A program made the translations under genes and the position numbers. The notes below the pieces were generated by a model that ran no database searches, had not been told where the DNA came from, and worked only from the letters and a program-made list of their open reading frames with translations. 64,000 nt of DNA from Planctomycetota bacterium (GTDB taxonomy: Bacteria; Planctomycetota; PLA2; JAEUHO01): the NCBI GenBank assembly GCA_965223505.1, contig CBDCWP010000021.1:224001-288000 (forward strand), in the 5' to 3' direction. Positions 45,838-63,560 of this stretch are shown piece by piece. The stretch's first letter is position 1. Each line of letters opens with the position of its first letter.

Positions 45838-46416
45838 TTGGACGTGTATCCGGAACAACAGCGGTATTGGATCGCGCTGCTGAACCTGCAGCGCACGTGG
45901 CAGACGGACGACGGATCCGTCTCGTTCATTCCGCCCCGGCATCGCGACTTCGAGAACCCGCCGGCATGGCCCATGCGCAAGGCGCAGGCATACCTGCTGA
46001 ACAATCTCGAGCTGATCCGCGAGAGCTACCGCCGGCTCGAGGCGGGTGTGCAGCTCGACTACGCCCTCCTGAACCACGGCCTGGAGGGGTTGACGCTGCG
46101 TCTCAACCCCTGGGACAGCATCTCGACCTTGCGCGCCGCCGCGCGCGCGAAGGACGACCTCGGCGGCCGGCTCGAGACGTTGCAAATCACGTCGGATGCG
46201 AACGGCCTCAACCCCGGAACACGCTACGTACGAGCGACGATCCAGCGGGCGCTGTACTACTTCGCTCAGTACGTGGACTACCGGCTCTCCGACCCCGCAT
46301 ATCCCGCGGTCTCTTCCGATCTATGGTGCGTACGCGAGTGCGAGAGCGGCACGGGGGATCTGGTCCTCGTGCCACCCGAGTTCGATCTCACCGAAGAGGA
46401 AGCGACCACTGCTTAG
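45838..46416 (+). CDS. Hypothetical protein
   Basis: Gap-filling ORF with normal codon style; start uncertain. Confidence 0.65.
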   Translation: MDVYPEQQRYWIALLNLQRTWQTDDGSVSFIPPRHRDFENPPAWPMRKAQAYLLNNLELIRESYRRLEAGVQLDYALLNHGLEGLTLRLNPWDSISTLRAAARAKDDLGGRLETLQITSDANGLNPGTRYVRATIQRALYYFAQYVDYRLSDPAYPAVSSDLWCVRECESGTGDLVLVPPEFDLTEEEATTA

Positions 46417-46429
46417 TCCGAACAAGCCC

Positions 46430-47872
46430 GTGTCTCAAACGCCGCAAGACGAGTATCGAAGTCCGCTGGTCGTTCGCTACGCCGGGCGCGAGATGCGGCG
46501 GCTCTTCTCCGAGCGCACGCGCATCGAGCGCTGGCGCGACATGTGGATCTGGCTGGCGGAGGCGGAGCGCGAGCTCGGCCTCGACATCGAAGCAGCGCAG
46601 ATCGATGCGATGCGCGCCGCCCGCGAGAACATCGACTTCGATCAAGCGTCGGAGTACGAACGCCGTTTCCGGCACGACGTCATGGCGCACGTGCATGCGT
46701 TCGGCGACGTGGCGCCCGACGCCCGCGCCGTCATCCACCTCGGCGCCACGTCGTGCTACGTCACGGACAACGCCGACGCGTTGATCCTGCGCGACGGCTT
46801 GCGGCACATCGAGACGAGCCTCGCCGAAGCGGTCGACGCGCTGGCGGGTTTCGCGGAGCGCACGAAGAGCGACGTCTGCCTGGCGTACACCCACTTCCAG
46901 CCGGCGCAGCCCACGACCTTCGGCAAGCGCGCCTGTCTCTGGATCCAGGACTTCCTCGACGATCTGAACCGCATCCGAGCCGCCGCCGAGGACGTCCCGT
47001 TCCTCGGATCCAAGGGCACGACCGGCACACAGGCCTCGTTCGTCACGCTCTTCGACGGCGACGCGGAGAAGTGCGAGCGGCTCGACGCGCTGGTGGCCGA
47101 GAAGGCGGGGTTCGACGGTCCGATCCCGGTTTCGGGCCAGACGTACCCGCGCAAGGCCGACTACGCGATCACGGCCGCGCTGGGCGGCGTCGCGGTGTCC
47201 GCGCACCGCTTCGCCAACGACGTGCGGCTGCTCTCCGGCCTGCGGGAGATGGCGGAGCCGTTCGAAAAGGAACAGATCGGCTCGAGCGCGATGGCCTACA
47301 AGCAGAACCCGATGCGCAGCGAACGCATCACGTCGCTTGCGCGCCACGTGATGGCGCTCGTGCCGGAAGCGGCGTCGACGGCCGCCTGCCAGTGGCTCGA
47401 ACGCTCGCTCGACGACTCGGCGGGACGGCGCATCTATCTGCCGGAGGCGTTCCTCGGCGTCGACGCGATCCTGCGCTTGGTGATCAACGTCGGGCGGGGC
47501 CTGCACGCCAACACCAAGGTGGCGCGCGCGCGGCTCGAGCGTGAGCTGCCGTTCATGGCGACGGAAGAGATCCTGATGCGCGCCGTGCGCGCCGGCGGGG
47601 ATCGGCAGGCGCTGCACGAACGCATTCGTGTGAACAGTCTCGCTGCGAAGGAGCGGCTCCTGGAAGGCGCCGAGCGCAACGACCTCTTCGATCGGATCCG
47701 TGACGACGATGCGTTCTCGGCGATTCGGGACGACCTCGACGAGCTGTCGTCGCCGGAGCGCTTCATCGGTCTGTCCACACGCCAGTGCGAGCGCTTTCTC
47801 GCATCGGACGTCGCGCAGGCCCTCGCCCCCTACCGCGAGCGCCTGGGTCGGGACGTCGAGATCAACGTCTAG
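46430..47872 (+). CDS. purB: Adenylosuccinate lyase
   Basis: GTG 46430; YRSPLVVRYA, RHDVMAH, HLGATS, THFQPAQPTT, SSAMAYKQNP. Confidence 0.96.
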   Translation: MSQTPQDEYRSPLVVRYAGREMRRLFSERTRIERWRDMWIWLAEAERELGLDIEAAQIDAMRAARENIDFDQASEYERRFRHDVMAHVHAFGDVAPDARAVIHLGATSCYVTDNADALILRDGLRHIETSLAEAVDALAGFAERTKSDVCLAYTHFQPAQPTTFGKRACLWIQDFLDDLNRIRAAAEDVPFLGSKGTTGTQASFVTLFDGDAEKCERLDALVAEKAGFDGPIPVSGQTYPRKADYAITAALGGVAVSAHRFANDVRLLSGLREMAEPFEKEQIGSSAMAYKQNPMRSERITSLARHVMALVPEAASTAACQWLERSLDDSAGRRIYLPEAFLGVDAILRLVINVGRGLHANTKVARARLERELPFMATEEILMRAVRAGGDRQALHERIRVNSLAAKERLLEGAERNDLFDRIRDDDAFSAIRDDLDELSSPERFIGLSTRQCERFLASDVAQALAPYRERLGRDVEINV

Positions 47873-50479: not shown

Positions 50480-50515
50480 GAAGGGAGCGCCCGCTTGGGT
50501 GCTCCCTTCACCTTT
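50480..50515 (+). terminator. Probable intrinsic terminator hairpin
   Basis: GAAGGGAGCGCCC-GCTT-GGGTGCTCCCTTC followed by ACCTTT. Confidence 0.55.
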
Positions 50516-50689
50516 GGGTCCGCGCGGACCCGTGCGCAGATCCGCATGAGCATGCGGCCTGCGGGCGTCTCGATCCCGCTTCGCCGCCGGTCCGGCCGTC
50601 GCAGCGACCCTCGACGCGCACCCGGTCCCCCTTCAAGCAGACCCGCCCCCCGAAGTAGAGTGCGCGGTCCCTCCGGCGGAGACCCGTAC

Positions 50690-53368
50690 GTGTCCGAGCA
50701 TCGCAATCCCGACGACGCTGACCCGATCGAAACCCAGGAGTGGCTCGAGTCGCTCGACGCCGTGTATCGCATCGCCGGCCCGGACCGCGCCCGGTTCCTG
50801 CTCGGACGCCTGCTCGGCGAAGCGCGCGAACACGGCTTCGTTCCCGACCGACTGCTCTCCTCGGATCACGTGAACACGATTCCGGTGGAGCGTGAGCCCG
50901 CCTACCCGGGCGACGAGGAGCTCGAAGAGCGCATCAACGAGATCATTCGCTGGAACGCGGCCGTCATGGTGAGCCGCGCCAACATGAAGTTCGCCGGATT
51001 GGGCGGACACATCTCGACGTTCGCCTCGTCCGCGGACTTGTACGACGTCGCGTTCAACCACTTCTTCCGCGGAAACGAGGGCGGAGGCTCCGGCGATCAG
51101 ATCTACTTCCAGGGACACGCGTCGCCGGGCATCTACGCGCGCTCGTTCCTCGAAGGACGCCTCGGCGAGGAGCACATGAACCGCTTCCGCCGCGAGGTCG
51201 AGCGGGGCAAGGGCCTGTCTTCGTACCCGCACGCGCGACTGATGCCCGACTACTGGCAGTTCCCGACGGTCTCCATGGGTCTCGGGCCGATCTGCTCGAT
51301 CTACCAGGCGCGCTTCAATCGCTACCTCAACGCCCGCGGCATCGTGAACACCGAAGACTCGCGTGTGTGGTGCTTCGTCGGCGACGGCGAGACGGACGAA
51401 CCCGAGAGCCTCGGCGCGCTCTCGGTCGCCGCGCGGGAGGGCCTGGACAACCTCACGTGGGTGATCAACTGCAACCTGCAGCGGTTGGACGGCCCCGTTC
51501 GCGGCAACGGGCAGATCATCACGGAGCTCGAGACGGTCTTTCGAGGGGCCGGCTGGAACGTGCTGAAGGTCATCTGGGGCAGCGGCTGGGACGACCTTTT
51601 CGCGCGGGACACCGAGGGTCGACTGCGCCGGCGGATGAACGAGGTCGTCGACGGCGAGTTCCAGCGCTATCGCGCCGAGAGCGGCGCGTACATCCGCGAA
51701 CACTTCTTCGGCGCCGATCCGAAGCTGCTCGATCTGGTCGCGCACCTCAGCAACGCCGACATCTGGCGGTTGCGGCGCGGCGGACACGACCACCGCAAGA
51801 TCTACGCCGCCTACAAGACCGCTGTCGAGCACAAGGGTCGTCCGACCGTGATCCTCGCGCACACCGTGAAGGGGTTCCTCCTCGGCGAAGGCTTCGAGTC
51901 CAAGAACGTGACGCATCAGAAGAAGGTCATGTCCACGGACGACTTCAAGCAGTTCCGCGACCGGCTCGAGCTGCCGATCACCGACCAGCAGCTCGCCGAT
52001 CCGCCGTTCTTCAACCCGGGGCCCGACAGCGACGAGGTGCGCTACATGCTCGAGCGCCGCGCGGCGCTCGGGGGGCCGGTGCCGGCGCGGCGCACCCAGC
52101 TCCACGTGAAGCTCGAGGTGCCGGGCGAGGACCTCTACGACGAGTTCCTGGAGGGGACGAAGAACCCGGGCGGGGTGTCGACGACGATGGCCTTCGTGCG
52201 GCTGTTGACGAAGCTGCTGAAGGACAAGAACCTGGGCAAGCGCGTCGTGCCGATCATTCCCGACGAAGCGCGTACGTTCGGCATGGAGCCCTTGTTCCGC
52301 CAGGTAGGCATCTACGCGGCGCAGGGCCAGAAGTACGAGCCCGTCGACCACAGCCAACTGCTCTTCTACAGGGAGTCGGAGGACGGCCAGGTCCTGCAGG
52401 AGGGCATCACCGAGGCCGGGTCGATGTCGAGCTTCATGGCGGCCGGTACGACGTACTCGTCGCACGGCGAGCCGATGCTGCCGTTCTACATCTTCTATTC
52501 GATGTTCGGCTTCCAGCGCGTGGGCGACCTGGCGTGGGCGTTCGGCGACGCGCGCGGGCGGGGATTCCTGATCGGCGCGACGGCGGGGCGTACGACGCTC
52601 AACGGCGAGGGGCTGCAGCACGAGGACGGGCACAGCCACGTGCTCGGGAACACGATCCCCAACCTGGTGAGCTACGACCCGTCGTTCGCGTTCGAGATCG
52701 CGTTGGTCGTCAAGGAAGGCATGCGCCGCATGTACGGCGAAGAGCAGGACGTCTTCTACTACATCACCGTCCACAACGAGAACTACCCGCAGCCGCCGAT
52801 GCCGGAGGGCACGGATCCGGAACACGTGATCGAGGGGCTGTACCTGTTCAAGAAGGCGAAGCGGCGCAACAAGAAGCACGTCGTGTTGCTCGGCAGCGGG
52901 TCCATCATGATGCAGGTGCTCGCTGCGCAGGAGCTGCTCGCGGACAAGTTCAAGGTGTCTGCGGACGTGTGGAGCGCGACGAGCTACCAACAGCTGCGGC
53001 ACAATGCGCTGACCGCGGAGCGCTGGAACCGGCTGCACCCGACGGACGAGCCGAAGACCTGCCACCTGTTCGACGTCATGAAGCAGATCGACGCGCCCGT
53101 GATCGCGGCGAGTGACTACATGAAGTACGTACCCGACCAGATCGCGCGCTGGGTCCCGACGACCTGGGTCCCGCTGGGCACGGACGGGTTCGGCATGAGT
53201 GACACGCGCGAGGCGCTGCGTCGTCACTTCGAGGTGGATGCCGAGTCGATTGCGATCGGCGCGCTGGACGCGCTTGCCCGGGACGGCGCGATCACGGCGG
53301 CCGACGTCGACAAGGGCATCAAGGCGCTCGACTACGATCCCGACAAGCTGCGCCCGACGACGATCTAG
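50690..53368 (+). CDS. aceE: Pyruvate dehydrogenase E1, homodimeric type
   Basis: GTG 50690 after GGAGA; DPIETQEWL, QGHASPG, FPTVSMGLGP, GDGE, NCNLQRLDGP, GEGLQHEDGHS. Confidence 0.98.
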   Translation: MSEHRNPDDADPIETQEWLESLDAVYRIAGPDRARFLLGRLLGEAREHGFVPDRLLSSDHVNTIPVEREPAYPGDEELEERINEIIRWNAAVMVSRANMKFAGLGGHISTFASSADLYDVAFNHFFRGNEGGGSGDQIYFQGHASPGIYARSFLEGRLGEEHMNRFRREVERGKGLSSYPHARLMPDYWQFPTVSMGLGPICSIYQARFNRYLNARGIVNTEDSRVWCFVGDGETDEPESLGALSVAAREGLDNLTWVINCNLQRLDGPVRGNGQIITELETVFRGAGWNVLKVIWGSGWDDLFARDTEGRLRRRMNEVVDGEFQRYRAESGAYIREHFFGADPKLLDLVAHLSNADIWRLRRGGHDHRKIYAAYKTAVEHKGRPTVILAHTVKGFLLGEGFESKNVTHQKKVMSTDDFKQFRDRLELPITDQQLADPPFFNPGPDSDEVRYMLERRAALGGPVPARRTQLHVKLEVPGEDLYDEFLEGTKNPGGVSTTMAFVRLLTKLLKDKNLGKRVVPIIPDEARTFGMEPLFRQVGIYAAQGQKYEPVDHSQLLFYRESEDGQVLQEGITEAGSMSSFMAAGTTYSSHGEPMLPFYIFYSMFGFQRVGDLAWAFGDARGRGFLIGATAGRTTLNGEGLQHEDGHSHVLGNTIPNLVSYDPSFAFEIALVVKEGMRRMYGEEQDVFYYITVHNENYPQPPMPEGTDPEHVIEGLYLFKKAKRRNKKHVVLLGSGSIMMQVLAAQELLADKFKVSADVWSATSYQQLRHNALTAERWNRLHPTDEPKTCHLFDVMKQIDAPVIAASDYMKYVPDQIARWVPTTWVPLGTDGFGMSDTREALRRHFEVDAESIAIGALDALARDGAITAADVDKGIKALDYDPDKLRPTTI

Positions 53369-53395: not shown

Positions 53396-54556
53396 TCAGT
53401 CCAACTTCAACTTCTTGCGCAGCACCGCGACGTACGCGGCGCGCTGCTCTTCCGTCCAGCCGTCGGGCGGATCGGGGAGGCGCTTGCGCGCGGAGCCCTC
53501 CATGAGCGACACCTGGATGCTCTGGACGAGCGACACGGCGGCCCGCGCCTTGCGTTGATCGTCCTCCGCGACGGCGGCGGGCAGGCCGTCGAGCAGAGCG
53601 CGTAGCGCGCGTGTCTTGTCGTCGTCCTTCACGCGCGAAGCGATCGCGCCCAGCGCGTGCGCGACGCTGCGGCTCGTGCCGTTGTAGGGGTTCATCTGCT
53701 TCGAGAACGCGGCGAGCGCGTCGATGCACGCCGCGTCGCCCGACTTGACCATGCACTTGGCCGCCCACCCACGCAGCACGTTCGGATTGCCCGACGGCAC
53801 GTCCTTGCCGGCGCCCGCGAACAGCTTGGCGAGGATCGGCGCCAGGTCGGTTCGTTCGTGCGACTCGAGCGCTTTGAGGACGGCGAAACGAATCGTGTCG
53901 CTGGGCGCTTCGAGGAAGCCCTCCGCGCCGTCCACGAGCTCCTGGGGCGCCTCCTCGGCCATGTACTGCACGCAGCGAATGCGAATCACGATGTCCTCGT
54001 AGGGATTCGCCGCCAGCTGGTTCAGCTTCTTCGGCTTGACCTTCCTCTTGTCGCGCAGCTGTTCTTCGAGCTCGAGCAGGCGCGTGTGCTGCTCTTCGAA
54101 CGCGGCGATCGCCTGCTCGTCGCCCTTGACGTCTCGGCCCTCGAAGCCCTTCTTCAACGCGTCGACGCTGCGCCCCAGGCGCGCCAGGATCCGGTCGTCG
54201 TTGGGGTCGATGAGGAAGAGATGCGGCCAGCTGGTGACCCCGAAGCGGTCGTGCGTGCGCGCGGCTTCGCGGTCGGACTCGTCGTCACGCCAGGTGCGAC
54301 AGACGTAGATCCAGACGACCTTCTCGTAGCTGTCCTTCAGGTCTTCGTGAGGCAGCACCTGCTCCTCGATGGGGACGCAGTGGGGTCAGTGCTTCTTCGT
54401 GAAGTAGGCGAAGATCGGCCGGCCCTTGCTCAGCGCCTCCTTTTTCGCTTCGAGCCAGGTCGGCTTCCACGGCGGCCCGTCGGGAATCGTCTCCCCCGCG
54501 AACGCGGCCGGCGCGATGAAGACTCCGACCAACACGAACGGAAGCGCGCACCTCAT
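53396..54556 (-). CDS. Probable exported selenoprotein: thioredoxin-like domain (U-P-H-C) plus HEAT-like repeats, 386 aa, Sec at codon 57
   Basis: ATG 54556 MRCALPFVLVGVFIAPAAFA-GETIPDGPPWKPTWLEAKKEALSKGRPIFAYFTKKH[TGA 54388-54386]PHCVPIEEQVLPHEDLK, continuing in frame into ORF 53396..54358. Confidence 0.85.
54349..54367 (-). promoter_or_regulatory. Candidate bacterial SECIS hairpin
   Basis: GAGGAGCAGGUGCUGCCUC begins 18 nt 3' of the UGA; GCAG-GUG-CUGC apex resembles the E. coli fdhF SECIS core GCAGGUCUGC. Confidence 0.7.
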
Positions 54557-54643
54557 CGTGGGATCCTAGCCCATTCCCACTCCAGGAACCTCGCGCTCTT
54601 TCGCGAGTGCGTGCCCTGACCCTCTTCCGCCGGTTCGCCGGCG

Positions 54644-56066: not shown

Positions 56067-56824
56067 TGGCCGGGGAGCGCCCCCCGTCCGCCGACGCCGC
56101 GCCGGAACCGGGGGGAAGCGGGAAGGACGAAGGCCCGGAGGCGTCCAAGAGGCGACCTCCCGACCCGGAACGCCCCATGTCCGCATCCCTCGCCCGATCC
56201 CAGCCTCGTCGTGCGCCCCGGCGGCCAACGCGCCGCCGCGTACGCGGGCCCGACCGCGCCGTCCAGGACCTGTGGACGGCACGACTGCGCGAGGGCGACC
56301 ACGACACGCTGCGCGAGGTGATGCAGGCCTATGGGGAGCGCATCACGGCCGTCGTTGCGGGCATCCTGCGCGACCGGGACGCGGTGGACGACGTCGTCCA
56401 GGAGGCGTTCACCAAGGTCTTCTACCGCATCCACTCGTTCAAGGGGACGTCGAGCCTGTACACGTGGATCTACCGCATCGCGGTCAACGCCACCAAGGAC
56501 TACATCAAGTCCCGCAAGCGCCGTCCCGCGTCGTCGCTCGACGACCTCCCGGCGCCGTTGGCGCTGCCGCAGCAAGGACGACCGATGCTCGAGGGCATCG
56601 AACAACGCGAGCTGCGTCTGCGCGTGCGCGGCGCCATCGATCGCCTCCCTACCAAGTTTCGTTCCGTGCTCGCGCTCCGCGAGATCGAAGGCATGGCGTA
56701 TCACGAGATCGCCGAGGTCATGAGCCTGAGCCTGGGCACGGTGGAAAGCCGGCTCTTCCGAGCACGAAAGCGTCTGCGTTCGCTGCTCGCCCGGGAAGAG
56801 CAACGTGAGAAAGGGACCTCGTGA
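56066..56824 (+). CDS. ECF RNA polymerase sigma factor (RpoE/SigW-like)
   Basis: DDVVQEAF, TWIYRIAVN, LREIEGMAYHEIAEVM..SLGTVESRLFRAR; start 56066 (TGATG overlap) or 56177. Confidence 0.93.
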   Translation: MAGERPPSADAAPEPGGSGKDEGPEASKRRPPDPERPMSASLARSQPRRAPRRPTRRRVRGPDRAVQDLWTARLREGDHDTLREVMQAYGERITAVVAGILRDRDAVDDVVQEAFTKVFYRIHSFKGTSSLYTWIYRIAVNATKDYIKSRKRRPASSLDDLPAPLALPQQGRPMLEGIEQRELRLRVRGAIDRLPTKFRSVLALREIEGMAYHEIAEVMSLSLGTVESRLFRARKRLRSLLAREEQREKGTS

Positions 56825-57844: not shown

Positions 57845-59656
57845 ATGGCACGGGCCATTGGCCTCGATATCGGCGCACGATCGATCAAGGTCGTCGAGCT
57901 GGCAGGCAGTGCCAAGGCGCCGAAGATCCAGCGCCTCGCCGTTCGAGAGATCCCGCCGCCGCTGCCGCCCGAAGAGCGGCCGGACGCCGACGAGAACCCG
58001 TACGACCCGGACACGGTCGTCGTCGAGCTGATCAACGAGATGTTCGCGTCGCTGCAGCTCCCGAAGGACGACGTCTGCGCCGCGTTCGACTCCGGCGTGA
58101 CGATGATCCGCGAGATCACGGTCCCGTTCTTCGAAGACGATCAGATCCGCAAGGTCGTCAAGTTCGAGGCCGAGAACCACCTGCACAGCCACGCCATCGA
58201 AGACGTGGTCGTGAACTGGATCAAGACCGGCGAGACGCGTGACGGCAGCCGCCTGACGATCTTCGCCTCGCCGAAGGTCGACCTCGCGCGGCGCATCTCC
58301 ATCCTGCGCCGCGCCGGCATCGAGCCGGCATCCGTCGATCTCGACTCGACGGCGCTCTTCACGGCCCTCGAGTCGGCCGGCGTCTTCGAAGAGAACCCCA
58401 ACGTCGTGGTCATCGACATCGGCGCGCACTCGACGAACTTGATTCTCGTCGTCGACGGCAAGCCGCGCGTGCTGCGATCGTTCCTGCTCGGTACGGCCGC
58501 GCTCGAGTCCGAGGTCGTCGCCGAGCTCGGCGTGTCGGCCGAAGAAGGGCGCCGACGCGTCCTCACCAGCGGTGCGCCGCAGTCGGACGACCTCTTCGTG
58601 CCGGCGTCGCAGCTTCCGACCGCCGCCGGCGATGATGAAGAGGCCGAGAGCGAGAAGAGCCTCGTACAGATTCAGACGGACGTCGTCGGTGAACGCCGGC
58701 TGGCGTTCATGCGCAAGCTGCAACGCGAGGCGAACCGTTCGATTGCCCCGGTGCAGACGGACACGCCGCCGGAGAAGATCATCCTGCTCGGCGGCGGGGC
58801 GCTGGTTCCCGAGTGCGCCGAGTTCCTCGGCGACCGTCTCGAGCTTCCCGTCGAGCGCATGAACCTGCTCGACCGTGTCCCGTGCAAGGACGCGGGCCCG
58901 GATCCGCAGTACGCCGGTGCGGCGATCGGCCCGGCCATCGGCTGCGGCCTGCGCATGATGGGCCGCACGGGCCTGGGCGTGGAGCTGCTGCAGGACGAGT
59001 TCTCACCGAAGAACACGTTCGACGTGATTCGCATCGCGATGACGACGGCCGTCACGCTCCTGTTCCTGATCGTGCTCGGCGTTACCTTCGTCGAGAAGCA
59101 GAAGTTCCAGGCGGAGCAGCGCACGTACAACAACTGGCTCTTCGCCGCGAAGCAGATCTTCTACAAGGTCGAGCCCGCGTACCTACGCGAAGTGGAGAAC
59201 AAGGACGAGAAGGCGGCGCAGAAGGCGGCCGAGCGCTGGCTGCGCGCGCAACCCAAGGACCACACGCAGATCAACCGGATCCGCAACCGCCTGCGCAAGC
59301 GCCACAGCGACCTCCAGGTCGACCTCGGCTTGGCGAAGAACATCCCCAAGCTCCCGAGCGCGACGAAGGTGATGCTCGAGATCTACAAGGCGCTGTCGGC
59401 CAAGCCGCGGGAGTCGCTGGGCGGGTTCTTCCAGATCCAGAAGATGCACATTCGCGAGCGCAACATGTCGATGACGCTGATCATGGACGACCCGCGCACG
59501 TCGGACACGGTTCGCGACCTGCTCCAAGCGAACGAGTACCTGCGGTCACGCGCTTCGGACGCGTCGAACGTCGTGGAGATCGGTTCGCAGCAGAGGTTGA
59601 GGCAAGAGAATCTCTATCGCCAAGAGATCTCGATGAAGTTCAAGGACGAAGAATAA
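57845..59656 (+). CDS. pilM: PilM-like actin-fold protein fused to TM plus PilN/GspL-like periplasmic domain
   Basis: IGLDIGARSIKVVEL, VIDIGAHST, LLGGGA, AIGCGLR, then TM and periplasmic domain. Confidence 0.85.
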   Translation: MARAIGLDIGARSIKVVELAGSAKAPKIQRLAVREIPPPLPPEERPDADENPYDPDTVVVELINEMFASLQLPKDDVCAAFDSGVTMIREITVPFFEDDQIRKVVKFEAENHLHSHAIEDVVVNWIKTGETRDGSRLTIFASPKVDLARRISILRRAGIEPASVDLDSTALFTALESAGVFEENPNVVVIDIGAHSTNLILVVDGKPRVLRSFLLGTAALESEVVAELGVSAEEGRRRVLTSGAPQSDDLFVPASQLPTAAGDDEEAESEKSLVQIQTDVVGERRLAFMRKLQREANRSIAPVQTDTPPEKIILLGGGALVPECAEFLGDRLELPVERMNLLDRVPCKDAGPDPQYAGAAIGPAIGCGLRMMGRTGLGVELLQDEFSPKNTFDVIRIAMTTAVTLLFLIVLGVTFVEKQKFQAEQRTYNNWLFAAKQIFYKVEPAYLREVENKDEKAAQKAAERWLRAQPKDHTQINRIRNRLRKRHSDLQVDLGLAKNIPKLPSATKVMLEIYKALSAKPRESLGGFFQIQKMHIRERNMSMTLIMDDPRTSDTVRDLLQANEYLRSRASDASNVVEIGSQQRLRQENLYRQEISMKFKDEE

Positions 59657-60247: not shown

Positions 60248-60315
60248 GTAGGGGCAGCCCTTGTGGCTGCCCAACAAGCGACGCCCCCGCTATGCGACCA
60301 CGAAGGTCGCCCTAT
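60248..60315. repeat. GTAG-type REP doublet between convergent genes
   Basis: GTAGGGGCAGCCCTTGTGGCTGCCC ... GCGACCACGAAGGTCGCCCTAT; overlaps the carB stop. Confidence 0.85.
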
Positions 60316-63300
60316 GCGGACGCCGGCGCGTGCAGCTCGGCGAGGTAGTCCTGCACGGGACGCGCCGTAACGGTCTCGGCGCGGTACGCCTCGAGGGCGC
60401 TGACCAGCGCACGCGCGCCGGACATGGTCGTAATGCACGGAATGTTGCGCACTGCCGCCACGCCGCGGATGCGACCCTCGTCGGTGCGCGCGCCGCGACC
60501 GCTCGGCGTGTTCACGATGAGCTGCACCTCGCGGTTCTTCACGATGTCCAACACGTTGGGACGCGCGCCGTCGGCGATCTTGTACACCATCTCGCAAGGG
60601 ACGCCCGACCTCGTCAGCAGCTTGTGCGTGCCCGACGTCGAGACGATCTGATACCCCAGCGCCGCGATCCGGCGCGCGATCTCGATCACGGTGCGCTTGT
60701 CGGCGTCTTTGACGGAGACGAAGACCTTGCCCTCGCGCGGCAGCTGCAGAAACGCGCCGAGCTTTGCCTTCGCGAACGCGACGCCGAGATCCGGGTCGAT
60801 GCCCATCACCTCGCCCGTGCTGCGCATCTCCGGGCCGAGGATGATGTCCGTGCCGGGGAAACGGTTGAACGGGAAGACCGGCTCCTTGACGGAGTAGTAC
60901 GGCGGGATGACCTCGTCCGGCACTTCCAGCTCGTCGAGCGTCTCCCCCGCCATCACCCGCGCCGCGTGCCGGGCGAGCGGCACGCCGGTCGCCTTCGAGA
61001 CGAAGGGCACCGTGCGGCTTGCGCGCGGGTTCACCTCGATGAGGTACAGCATGTCGTCCTTGACCGCGTACTGCACGTTCATCAGCCCGCGGACGTCGAG
61101 CGCCTTGGCGAGCTTGCGCGTCGAGGAGCGGATCTCGTCGAGCACGTGGTCGCGCAACGAGTTCGTCGGGAGGGTGCACGTCGAGTCGCCCGAGTGCACG
61201 CCGCACTCCTCGATGTGCTCCATGATCCCGCCGATCACGCACCGCGTGCCGTCGAAGATGGCGTCCACGTCGACCTCGATCGCGTCCTCGAGGAACTTGT
61301 CGACGAGAATCGGCTTCTCCGGCGAGGCCTCCGCCGCCTCTTCGATGTAGCGCCTGAGCGTCTCGTCGTCGTAGACGATCTCCATGGCGCGGCCGCCCAG
61401 CACGAAGGACGGGCGGACGAGCACGGGGTAGCCGATCCGGTGCGCGACCGTCACGGCCTCCTCGTACGACGTGGCCGTGCCGTTCTCGGTCTGCCGCAGA
61501 CCGCAATCCTCGACCAAATCCTTGAACTGCCCACGATCGTCGGCGAGATCGATCGAATCGGGCGACGTGCCGATGATCGGCGCGCCGGCCTGCTCGAGCG
61601 TGCGCGCCAGGTTCAACGGCGTCTGGCCGCCGTACTGGACGATGACACCGTTGGCCCCCGTGCGCTCGATGACGTCGAGTACGTGCTCGACCGTCAGCGG
61701 CTCGAAGAAGAGCACGTCGCTCGTGTCGTAGTCCGTCGAGACGGTCTCGGGATTCGAGTTGACCATGACCGTCTCGTAGCCGGCGTCGCGCAAGGCGAAG
61801 GCCGCCTGGACGCAGCAGTAGTCGAACTCGATGCCCTGACCGATTCGGTTCGGGCCGCCGCCCAGGATGACGATGCGCTCCCTCTTCGCTTCCCGCAGCT
61901 CGTCCTCCTCGTCGTACGAGGAGTAGTAGTAGGGCGTTGCCGCCTCGAACTCGCCCGCGCAGGTGTCGACGAGCTTGTAGACAGGCTTGATCCCGCGCCC
62001 GGCACGGTGCGCCCGCACCTCGAGCTCGGGCAGGTTGAAGATCGTGCCGATCTGATGGTCGGAGAAGCCGTCCTGCTTGGCACGGTACAGGAGCTCGTCG
62101 GGGACCGCCGCGAGCGTGTTGAACGCGCGCAGCTCGTTCTCTCGCTCGATGAGCAGCCGCATCTGCTCCAGGAACCACGGATCCACGCCCGTGTGCTCGT
62201 AGAGGCGATCGATCTCCCAGCCGGTTCGCAGCGCGTCGCGGATGCGGAAGATCCGGTTGGGGCCCGGATTCTGGATCCGCCGTCGCAACTCCTCTTTGTC
62301 CGCGAGCGTTTCGGCCTGCTCCTTCGCGTCGCAGCCGAACCCGAACCGGCCGGTCTCGAGGCTGCGCAGCGCCTTCTGCAGGCTCTCGCGGAACGTGCGG
62401 CCGATCGCCATGCCCTCGCCGACGCTCTTCATCTGCGTCGTGAGCACGGCCGGCGTTTCGGGGAACTTCTCGAAGTTGAAGCGCGGCACCTTCGTGACGA
62501 CGTAGTCGATCGTCGGCTCGAAGCAGGCGCGCGTCTTCTTCGTGATGTCGTTCGCGAGCTCGTCGAGCGTGTAGCCGACCGCGAGCTTCGCCGCGATCTT
62601 CGCGATGGCGAACCCGGTCGCCTTGCTGGCGAGCGCCGACGAACGGGACACGCGCGGGTTCATCTCGATCACGACCTGCCGGCCGGTCTCCGGATCGACG
62701 GCGAACTGGATGTTGCTGCCGCCGGTCTCGACGCCGATCTCCCGGATGACGCGAATGGCGGCGTCGCGCATCAGCTGGTACTCGCGGTCCGTCAACGTCT
62801 GCGCCGGCGCAACGGTGATCGAGTCGCCGGTGTGAACACCCATCGGATCGATGTTCTCGATGCTGCAGATGATGACGACGTTGTCGGCGAGGTCGCGCAT
62901 GACCTCGAGCTCGAACTCCTTCCAACCGACGACGCTCTCCTCGATGAGGATCTCGTTGACCGGCGAAAGGTCGAGGCCGCGCCGGCAGATGTCGTGAAAC
63001 TCGTCCACATTCCACGCGATGCCGCCGCCCGTGCCGCCCAGCGTGAACGACGGCCGGATGACGCACGGCAGGCCAATGTCCTCCTTGGCCGCCAGTGCGG
63101 CTTCGAACGACGTGACCGTAACGCTGCGCGGCAGATCGAGGCCGATCTTCAGCATGGCCGTGCGGAACTCTTCGCGGTTCTCCGCCTTGTGGATGACGTC
63201 GGGGCGCGCGCCGAGCATCGTCACGCCGTACTTCTCGAGCACGCCCTTTTCGTGGAGCTCGATGGCGACGTTCAGTCCCGTCTGCCCGCCCATGGTCGGC

Positions 63301-63560
63301 AGGAGCGCGTCGGGACGTTCTTCGGCGATGACGCGCTCGACGACCTCGGCGGTGACCGGCTCGATGTAGGTGCGGTCCGCGGTCTCGGGATCCGTCATGA
63401 TCGTGGCGGGGTTGCTGTTGACGAGGAGGACCTCGTAGCCCTCTTCGCGCAGCGCCTTGCAGGCTTGCGTTCCGGAGTAGTCGAACTCCGCCGCCTGACC
63501 GATGACGATGGGGCCCGAACCGAGAATCAGAATCCGGTGGATGTCGTCTCGACGGGGCAT
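60312..63560 (-). CDS. carB: Carbamoyl-phosphate synthase large subunit
   Basis: [17 protein letters not shown], two ATP-grasp halves, C-terminal MGS domain. Confidence 0.99.

Follow-up and report, generated by a model that had tools for sequence, protein, structure and literature searches.

Considering that open reading frame (ORF) prediction by default treats every TGA as a stop, the question raised by the locus described here is whether two successive ORFs on the minus strand of a planctomycetal DNA stretch of 64,000 nucleotides (nt) (positions 224,001 to 288,000 of contig CBDCWP010000021.1, assembly GCA_965223505.1; this whole stretch is referred to as the window, and positions are given in its coordinates) are distinct coding units, or whether they represent a single gene in which an in-frame TGA specifies selenocysteine (Sec, U). 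An initial annotation of this DNA had favoured the second possibility, proposing an exported Sec oxidoreductase in which a thioredoxin (Trx) fold is joined to a protein-binding scaffold, and which is hidden by standard annotation. Our analysis supports the elements of that proposal: the region very probably constitutes a single gene that encodes an exported 386-residue selenoprotein, composed of a Sec-type signal peptide, a Trx fold containing Sec and a HEAT/alphaRep-like domain, for which a role as reductase or isomerase is proposed more tentatively.

Conservation of the frame across codon 57

The frame in question runs from an ATG at 54556-54554 to a TGA stop at 53398-53396, and its sole internal TGA is located at 54388-54386 (codon 57), as a consequence of which ORF listing cuts it into an ORF of 56 amino acids (aa) (54386..54556) and a GTG-initiated ORF of 320 aa (53396..54358). 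This split had already been described in the initial annotation and was reproduced here. When codon 57 is read through, the deduced protein has the sequence MRCALPFVLVGVFIAPAAFA|GETIPDGPPW...FAYFTKKH-U-PHCV...GVTSWP..., followed by approximately 240 helical residues.

A six-frame search retrieved orthologues in 15 of 61 related genomes (the source genome being one of the 15), each with exactly one TGA inside the match, and this TGA occupies the identical column in all 15 sequences, within the context F-x-Y-[FL]-T-K-x-[HY]-TGA-P-H-C-V. A picture in which close relatives all carry Cys and lack a conserved hairpin, as expected for a simple nonsense mutation, is therefore not what was obtained. 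The comparison was extended to a collection of species-representative genomes and to contigs from metagenomes, and the pooled set contains 57 loci covering the Sec column, equivalent to 39 distinct 50-nt segments (the Cys form L092 was too short and was left out). Both of the outcomes that had been anticipated for codon 57, a conserved TGA and a Cys codon, are represented among these segments, TGA being present in 34 and TGC or TGT in five. Three of the Cys forms (L068, L070 and L071) are full-length and display, at the DNA level, TGC-CCG-CAC-TGC, i.e. CPHC, while the two others are distant (L093 with CPHC and L073 with CAPC). In the alignment the TGA thus coincides with the first of the two CPHC cysteines of the Cys-form homologues, in agreement with the earlier claim that it falls on the first Cys of the redox motif. 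Those source records that carry names are metagenome-assembled genomes of Planctomycetota, save one titled only 'bacterium'.

Protein identity to the query ranges from 33 to 48% among the homologues, and Sec forms extend down to the 33% limit. The 56 codons 5' of the TGA are likewise kept as protein, with W30, A37, A41, P47, F49, Y51, T53 and K54 being invariant. In a tree of the family, the Cys pair L068 and L071 is nested within Sec forms (support of 100/98 for the pair and 94/86 for its clade with L089) and L070 is placed elsewhere, so that the well-supported branches of this unrooted tree require at least two changes between Sec and Cys. At positions 54386-54388, where the initial annotation had advised a check of the raw reads, public Logan contigs from two samples of one study, one of which may be the source of the assembly, show no differing letter and agree on TGA. 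This gene itself terminates with TGA, as do 9 of the 13 orthologues that have their stop inside the contig, which argues against a general reassignment of this codon.

The source genome, which is 92% complete, was searched for the genes required for Sec incorporation, as had been suggested, and selA (507 bits), selB (336 bits), selD (338 bits) and selC, in the form of tRNA-Sec (69.2 bits), are all present with scores above curated cut-offs. The first and third of these are adjacent, selA being directly upstream of selD, and selD (G000:C8:38315-39232, L001) itself contains one in-frame TGA (GAGG-U-AAK), corresponding to the known Sec form of SelD. Moreover, selA was found in all 15 genomes that carry the TGA form. 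As judged from these sequence comparisons, UGA-57 is predicted to be recoded as Sec by the standard bacterial route, in which SelB with Sec-tRNA would decode the codon, steered by a hairpin within the coding sequence (CDS).

A short hairpin downstream of UGA-57

Such a hairpin had been drawn in the initial annotation as GAGGAGCAG-GUG-CUGCCUC, corresponding to positions 54367-54349 and beginning 18 nt past the UGA. In the RNAfold prediction these 19 nt pair as GAGGAGC-AGGU-GCU(G)CCUC, with an energy of -9.3 kcal/mol for a 26-nt context, and RNAalifold applied to the 15 orthologues returns one 5-bp stem with a 4-nt loop. The place of the element and its 18-nt spacing were correct, whereas the proposed 3-nt GUG loop has to be replaced by the register of the family, being a stem of 5-6 bp with an AGUU or AGGU loop. 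This apical loop begins 25 nt past the UGA and reads AGUU in 30 and AGGU in four of the 34 Sec forms, the sequence studied here having AGGU. All six pairs are formed in one register in 30 of these 34 sequences, and the remaining four, our own sequence included, fold in a shifted register.

Across the 34 Sec forms the six pairs are formed in 96.6% of the cells, compared to 33-81% after displacement of the 3' arm by one to three columns, and the covariation score amounts to 0.223, as against 0.080 +/- 0.017 for shuffled alignments, a value that none of 500 shuffles reached. The pair between columns 31 and 42 is A-U in 13 sequences, G-C in 11, C-G in five and G-U in two (unpaired in three), and that between columns 30 and 43 is G-C in 31 and A-U in two (unpaired in one). 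Column 31 represents the first base of a Glu, Lys or Gln codon and column 42 the third, silent position of a Leu codon, with Glu codons being paired with CUC or CUU, Lys codons with CUU and Gln codons with CUG. Such coupling of a first codon position to a silent third position is explained only by a constraint at the RNA level, and not by selection on the protein; moreover, the different states of this pair are interleaved on the protein tree, so that several independent switches are required. The five Cys forms, on the other hand, make only one to four of the six pairs and lack the CAG-UUG core.

These features can be compared with the consensus of the bacterial Sec insertion sequence (bSECIS) given in Fig. 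2 of a 2026 review (PMC13188914), which specifies an apical loop of 3-9 nt with a G among its first two positions, located 16-37 nt after the UGA, and an upper stem of 4-16 bp with a minimum free energy (MFE) of -7.5 kcal/mol or lower. The family agrees with this consensus in its 4-nt loop, where a G at position 2 precedes either G or U, and in the distance of 25 nt from the UGA. As regards stem and energy, the stem measures 5-6 bp in 30 of the 34 sequences, and for 22 family sequences that were folded the local MFE lies between -7.9 and -12.5 kcal/mol. The element is nevertheless unusually short and, in our own sequence, the stem consists of 3 + 4 bp around a bulged G.

A number of results weigh against this assignment, or at least do not add to it. 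The energy of the hairpin in our own G+C-rich sequence is ordinary when compared to shuffled sequences (z = -0.20 and +1.08), and an Rfam scan of 54200-54500 at E <= 10 returned no SECIS family and only a chance match to a snoRNA. A script representing a strict implementation of the constraints in Fig. 2 of PMC13188914 passes 22 of the 34 Sec forms and also 195 of 600 (32.5%) random genome positions, which makes the consensus model unspecific in this G+C-rich genome, and our own sequence fails it because the bulged G splits the upper stem. As regards the Sec machinery, selA occurs in 53 of the 61 related genomes, so that its co-occurrence with the gene has little discriminating power. Support for the hairpin should consequently be regarded as comparative and not thermodynamic, and it is on comparative grounds that this short element within the CDS is predicted to direct recoding of UGA-57.

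Two other accounts of codon 57 need to be weighed against recoding as Sec. It is highly improbable that the UGA is decoded as Trp or Cys, whether by a near-cognate tRNA or through a local change of the code: although the sequence data by themselves demand no more than some form of read-through, nothing points specifically to this mode, and it is opposed by the use of TGA as terminator in this gene and in most orthologues with a stop inside the contig, by a homologous residue that is a redox Cys, by the full Sec machinery of the genome, and by a covarying hairpin of bSECIS geometry which is restricted to TGA forms. The remaining account, according to which the TGA reflects a nonsense mutation or an assembly error and the product is a HEAT protein of 320 residues initiated at GTG 54358, possibly accompanied by a 56-residue peptide, corresponds to the output of gene callers and to public database entries, yet this account and any two-gene reading are practically excluded by a TGA that 34 distinct sequences, with protein identities as low as 33%, share in one column, by the conserved upstream codons, by a Trx fold that would be severed between strand 1 and helix 1, and by the agreement between contigs of two samples.

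Domain architecture and possible function

The initial annotation had recognized a signal peptide, a Trx-like start, a putative cis-Pro loop (GVTSWP) and HEAT-like helices in the read-through protein, and each of these found support. The features of a signal peptide, as judged by eye, are a short N-region, a hydrophobic core and an AxA-G site, and they are present in all 14 aligned orthologues, with A20 invariant and G21 nearly so. Pfam models match above their cut-offs for Thioredoxin_2 (PF13098, 36.9 bits), Thioredoxin_7 (PF13899, 33.2 bits; cut-off 27) and HEAT_2 (PF13646, 29.7 bits; cut-off 27.7). A structural model generated with AlphaFold2 (AF2) from the 14 orthologues reached a pLDDT of 91.4 and a pTM of 0.86, with values below 50 for residues 1-20 only. 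In this model the residue specified by the TGA stands at the start of helix 1 in a canonical Trx fold, which spans the TGA, and the GVTSWP loop, whose W110-P111 is invariant in the 14 orthologues, precedes a strand. The Trx fold (residues 30-142) is plain, i.e. without a helical insertion, helices occupy residues 147-383, and a long helix rigidly joins the Trx domain to the repeat domain.

Among structural matches of the Trx domain, DsbH ranked best, the others being the UAS domain, an exported Trx domain involved in cytochrome c biogenesis from Bacteroides (Z 11.8), AGR3 and DsbD-gamma (Z 10.7). Its sequence can furthermore be aligned over 115 residues with the gamma domain of a DsbD homologue encoded by the same genome (27% identity), with U aligned to U. 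The C-terminal half resembles alphaRep, HEAT and armadillo repeat proteins (VIA Z 10.9-12.1), and alphaRep proteins were retrieved for it by a PDB profile search with E values of 1.9e-13 to 1e-8.

From these likenesses it may be proposed, tentatively and with slightly less than an even chance of being correct, that the Trx-HEAT selenoprotein is a periplasmic selenol/thiol-disulfide reductase or isomerase which works on the reducing, DsbD-fed side of redox chemistry in the envelope. In the corresponding mechanism, the Sec-Cys pair, with Sec as the attacking residue, would exchange selenosulfide and disulfide bonds in the periplasm, it would be recharged by a membrane protein of the DsbD/CcdA type, and the HEAT domain would hold a client or partner. 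The source genome encodes two DsbD homologues with alpha and membrane (DsbD_TM) domains. In addition, three Cys-form representatives of the family (P0027, P0043 and P0057) possess an extra N-terminal beta-sandwich of about 200 residues with the motif A-C-D-x-x-x-C, and the top ten Foldseek matches of this extension are all DsbD-alpha (E 6e-5 to 4e-4, TMt 0.49-0.58). This reading is weakened by the quality of the extension model (pLDDT 55-83), by a DsbD_N Pfam match that remains below its cut-off (18.1 versus 25 bits), by a PDB sequence search with the same three proteins which gave no DsbD-alpha, and by the P-H dipeptide of the redox motif, which is that of the oxidising DsbA and favours an oxidase. 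The gene neighbourhood offers no guidance on function, since it is not kept across the family, an ABC-2 transporter being located upstream in only 7 of 23 loci.

Rather unlikely is a role as a redox-regulated holdase or cysteine protector comparable to CnoX/YbbN or DsbG; the protein would then act by reducing cysteines that have become sulfenylated in envelope proteins attached to the repeats. Such a role would suit the combination of a Trx fold with a helical-repeat platform, and YbbN and its Salmonella homologue do occur in the fold lists, with poor superposition (TMq 0.19, root-mean-square deviation (rmsd) above 20 A); moreover, 4 of the 17 family representatives with an N-terminal domain have lost the CxxC motif and yet keep the HEAT domain, suggesting that binding without catalysis can be a function in its own right. 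The likeness to CnoX is, however, architectural only.

More doubtful still is a DsbA-like periplasmic oxidase introducing disulfides into HEAT-held clients. Besides export, this would account for the P-H dipeptide, which equals that of DsbA, CPHC having been named as the DsbA motif in the initial annotation. Fold and sequence point to DsbH and DsbD-gamma, both reductases, and not to DsbA. Membership of the DsbA family was rejected on the basis that PF01323 is unmatched at E <= 1 and that the Trx fold has no helical insertion, so that the C/U-P-H-C dipeptide is the sole DsbA-like feature. The same negative result was obtained for the NCBIfam models NF047660 and NF041057, with the proviso that HMMER filters may drop very weak matches. 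Furthermore, the genome already possesses a VKOR-DsbA fusion, the VKOR and DSBA domains being located in a single open frame of 481 codons (G000:C31:87556-88830; L096, L097), and some relatives of the selenoprotein are fused to the DsbD-alpha-like domain described above. DsbB was not found in the source genome at its completeness of 92%.

With respect to the proposed reductase or isomerase, several observations on DsbD itself deserve mention. The second DsbD homologue of the source genome (G000:C11, locus L095:304-2706, with DsbD_N and DsbD_TM) ends at a TGA (L095:2446-2448) that coincides with the first Cys of the gamma-domain motif (FTADW-U-ATC), and reading through it yields a complete gamma domain. 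A palindrome, TTCCAGGTCCTGGAG, begins 21 nt past this TGA in the source genome, while all 11 orthologues that were checked have TGC or TGT at this position and lack the palindrome. The TGA may represent either a recent change from Cys to Sec or a nonsense mutation. Among the 41 genomes searched with both genes (G000-G024 and G029-G044), the Trx-HEAT selenoprotein occurs in 12 and an orthologue of the second DsbD in 15; both are present only in the source genome and neither in 14, a distribution that can serve as a lead only, related genomes not being independent.

A more specific version of the reductase reading, in our estimation improbable, holds that the family is a free-standing Sec-dependent counterpart of DsbD-gamma, which would act as a soluble periplasmic electron shuttle charged by a membrane protein of the DsbD/CcdA type, would use its HEAT domain to select clients or to dock a DsbD-alpha-like partner, and would have replaced a second DsbD paralogue in those planctomycetal lineages that possess it. 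It is hinted at by the DsbD-alpha-like fusions, by the near-exclusive distribution relative to the second DsbD, and by the TGA in the gamma domain of the latter, which is confined to the source genome.

The coordinates of the gene, its elements and the remaining features are collected in the table below. None of the Pfam-named neighbours in the window adjoins members of the family elsewhere.

Table. Location of the Trx-HEAT selenoprotein gene, its elements, neighbouring genes and members of a sister family. Positions refer to the window unless a locus is named.
Feature	Position	Strand	Basis or remark
Complete selenoprotein CDS	53396..54556	-	386 codons plus TGA stop, predicted Sec at codon 57; frame reading, alignment of 14 orthologues, AF2 model
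Shine-Dalgarno-like tetramer AGGA	54564..54567	-	7 nt 5' of ATG; read from sequence
Putative signal peptide, residues 1-20 (MRCALPFVLVGVFIAPAAFA, then GE)	54497..54556	-	judged by eye
Thioredoxin_7/DsbH/DsbD-gamma-like domain, residues 30-142	54131..54469	-	Pfam and structural matches
Predicted Sec codon TGA	54386..54388	-	TGA or Cys codon in alignment column (34 and 5 of 39 segments)
Redox motif U-P-H-C, codons 57-60	54377..54388	-	position 57, P58, H59 and C60 invariant in alignment
bSECIS-type hairpin	54349..54367	-	inside CDS, codons 64-70 (EEQVLPH)
W110-P111, putative cis-Pro loop	54224..54229	-	precedes strand 112-117; invariant in alignment, placed by AF2 model
Linker helix and HEAT/alphaRep-like repeats, residues 147-386	53399..54118	-	Pfam, PDB profile search, VIA
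Terminal stop TGA	53396..53398	-	no hairpin requirement
Adenylosuccinate lyase	46196-47872	+	Pfam
Pyruvate dehydrogenase E1 (aceE)	50495-53368	+	Pfam; downstream, converging on the selenoprotein gene
Extracytoplasmic function (ECF)-type sigma factor	~56200-56824	+	Pfam; upstream of the selenoprotein gene
PilM-like protein	57845-59656	+	Pfam
Carbamoyl-phosphate synthase large chain	60312-63560	-	Pfam
Sister U-P-P-C family, tandem members	L040:242-1360 and L040:1255-2328		
Sister U-P-P-C family, member	L049:1351-2304		
Sister U-P-P-C family, member	L050:1372-2436		

Annotation of the family and comparison with known systems

In order to establish how members of the family are represented in public data, a profile search was performed against 1.84 billion cluster representatives, and the 100 proteins obtained at E <= 1e-30 were re-scored locally. 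Fifty-nine of these begin within three residues of the position directly following the Sec column, 24 are fragments, and 17 have the N-terminal domain, of which 13 contain a CxxC motif (11 CPHC, one CTPC and one CPDC) and four are without it. The 59 late-starting proteins probably represent Sec forms whose gene calls restarted after the in-frame stop, as is suggested by the position of their first residue, and their number implies that the family is widely truncated in annotation, which extends to public entries the earlier assertion that standard annotation would shorten this gene. A word-indexed search gave a similar picture in that all 20 matches of near-complete length lack the N-terminal part, the named ones being designated 'hypothetical protein' or 'HEAT repeat protein'. 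Some of the truncated representatives open with MERGLLS..., which is also the sequence context in L068 and L071, two of the Cys forms; should these representatives truly be located downstream of a TGA, they must have a SECIS unlike the AGUU hairpin.

Truncation at the Sec codon thus hides both the catalytic domain and the export signal in databases, affecting about 60% of the strongest representatives, and a dedicated profile carrying a Sec flag would mend annotation across the Planctomycetota. The bacterial selenoproteome would gain a selenoprotein that is exported and in which a helical-repeat platform is fused to the Trx fold. The SECIS, which is in frame, covaries and is very short (5 bp, AGUU loop), would offer a clean natural case for the minimal requirements of recognition by SelB outside the Proteobacteria. 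No kind of bacterial selenoprotein is commoner than the Trx-fold UxxC type, which has Cys homologues and a SECIS adjacent on the 3' side, and new Trx-like families appear in reports regularly. The principles of Sec decoding remain unchanged, and the result is a solid correction of annotation that will not surprise the specialist.

A sister family was noticed in related genomes, in which a signal peptide and a Thioredoxin_7 domain containing U-P-P-C (encoded with TGA) precede a helical C-terminal part of some 220 residues, and for which no NCBIfam family reaches its cut-off. In L050, a hairpin GAGGGC-GGU-GCCCUC begins 18 nt past the TGA and the protein terminates in a (G-C-G-E/D) repeat; similar hairpins occupy the same place in the other sister members. 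Separately, a tblastn search detected a second Trx-like frame bearing a TGA (IAYFTFET-U-HWC) in locus L069, which also carries a member of the Trx-HEAT family. Together with this sister family and the DsbD homologue that may carry Sec, the Trx-HEAT family suggests wide use of selenium in the thiol-disulfide chemistry of the planctomycetal envelope.

Of the known proteins, DsbH, a periplasmic disulfide reductase of Chlamydia (PDB 2ju5), is the best match of the Trx domain (Foldseek E 2.3e-4, TMt 0.67; VIA Z 13.0, rmsd 2.4 A over 115 residues, 22% identity). Both proteins are exported and have one Trx_7-type domain with a redox pair at the CxxC position, whereas DsbH has neither Sec nor a C-terminal repeat domain. 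No NCBIfam model reaches its cut-off with our protein, the best being the Trx7/PDZ selenoprotein model NF041199 (16.7 versus 300 bits) and the DsbH model NF043050 (16 versus 190 bits), the latter score indicating that it is not a member of DsbH. Membership of the Trx7/PDZ family was rejected in view of the low score, a motif that is UxxC rather than CxxU, and the lack of a PDZ match.

DsbD-gamma of E. coli and Neisseria (PDB 1vrs, 2fwe and 6dnu) shares the fold (VIA Z 10.7 and 9.5), and the redox residues of the gamma domain in the genome's own DsbD align with those of the Trx domain. In contrast to DsbD-gamma, the Trx-HEAT protein is soluble and not tethered to the membrane domain of DsbD, and it is further distinguished by its HEAT domain, by having Sec where DsbD-gamma has its first Cys, and by the P-H dipeptide. 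The E. coli chaperedoxin CnoX/YbbN (PDB 3qou) likewise consists of a Trx fold followed by an all-helical platform, in this case of tetratricopeptide repeats (TPR), but it is cytoplasmic, lacks Sec and employs another type of repeat, and the rmsd over the whole chain is 21-22 A.

The 2026 review (PMC13188914) tabulates 119 prokaryotic selenoprotein families, none of them a Trx-HEAT family, and the nearest entries are the PF13098 thiol:disulfide interchange protein, the DsbG-like NF041057, the DsbA-like PF01323, NF047660 (HUIPC) and the Trx7/PDZ family NF041199 (CxxU). These families have in common with ours the location of Sec at the redox CxxC position, a bSECIS just 3' of the UGA, and Cys homologues; they differ in that none is listed with a HEAT-repeat domain. 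The Trx-HEAT protein also matches PF13098. The words 'HEAT' and 'repeat' as well as PF13899 are absent from the text of the review, and no description of the family was found in further literature on selenoproteins, although supplements of discovery papers (e.g. PMC4807772 S9) could list it. Measured against these sources, the Trx-HEAT selenoprotein is a new family within a well-known selenoprotein class, having an architecture that was not previously listed.

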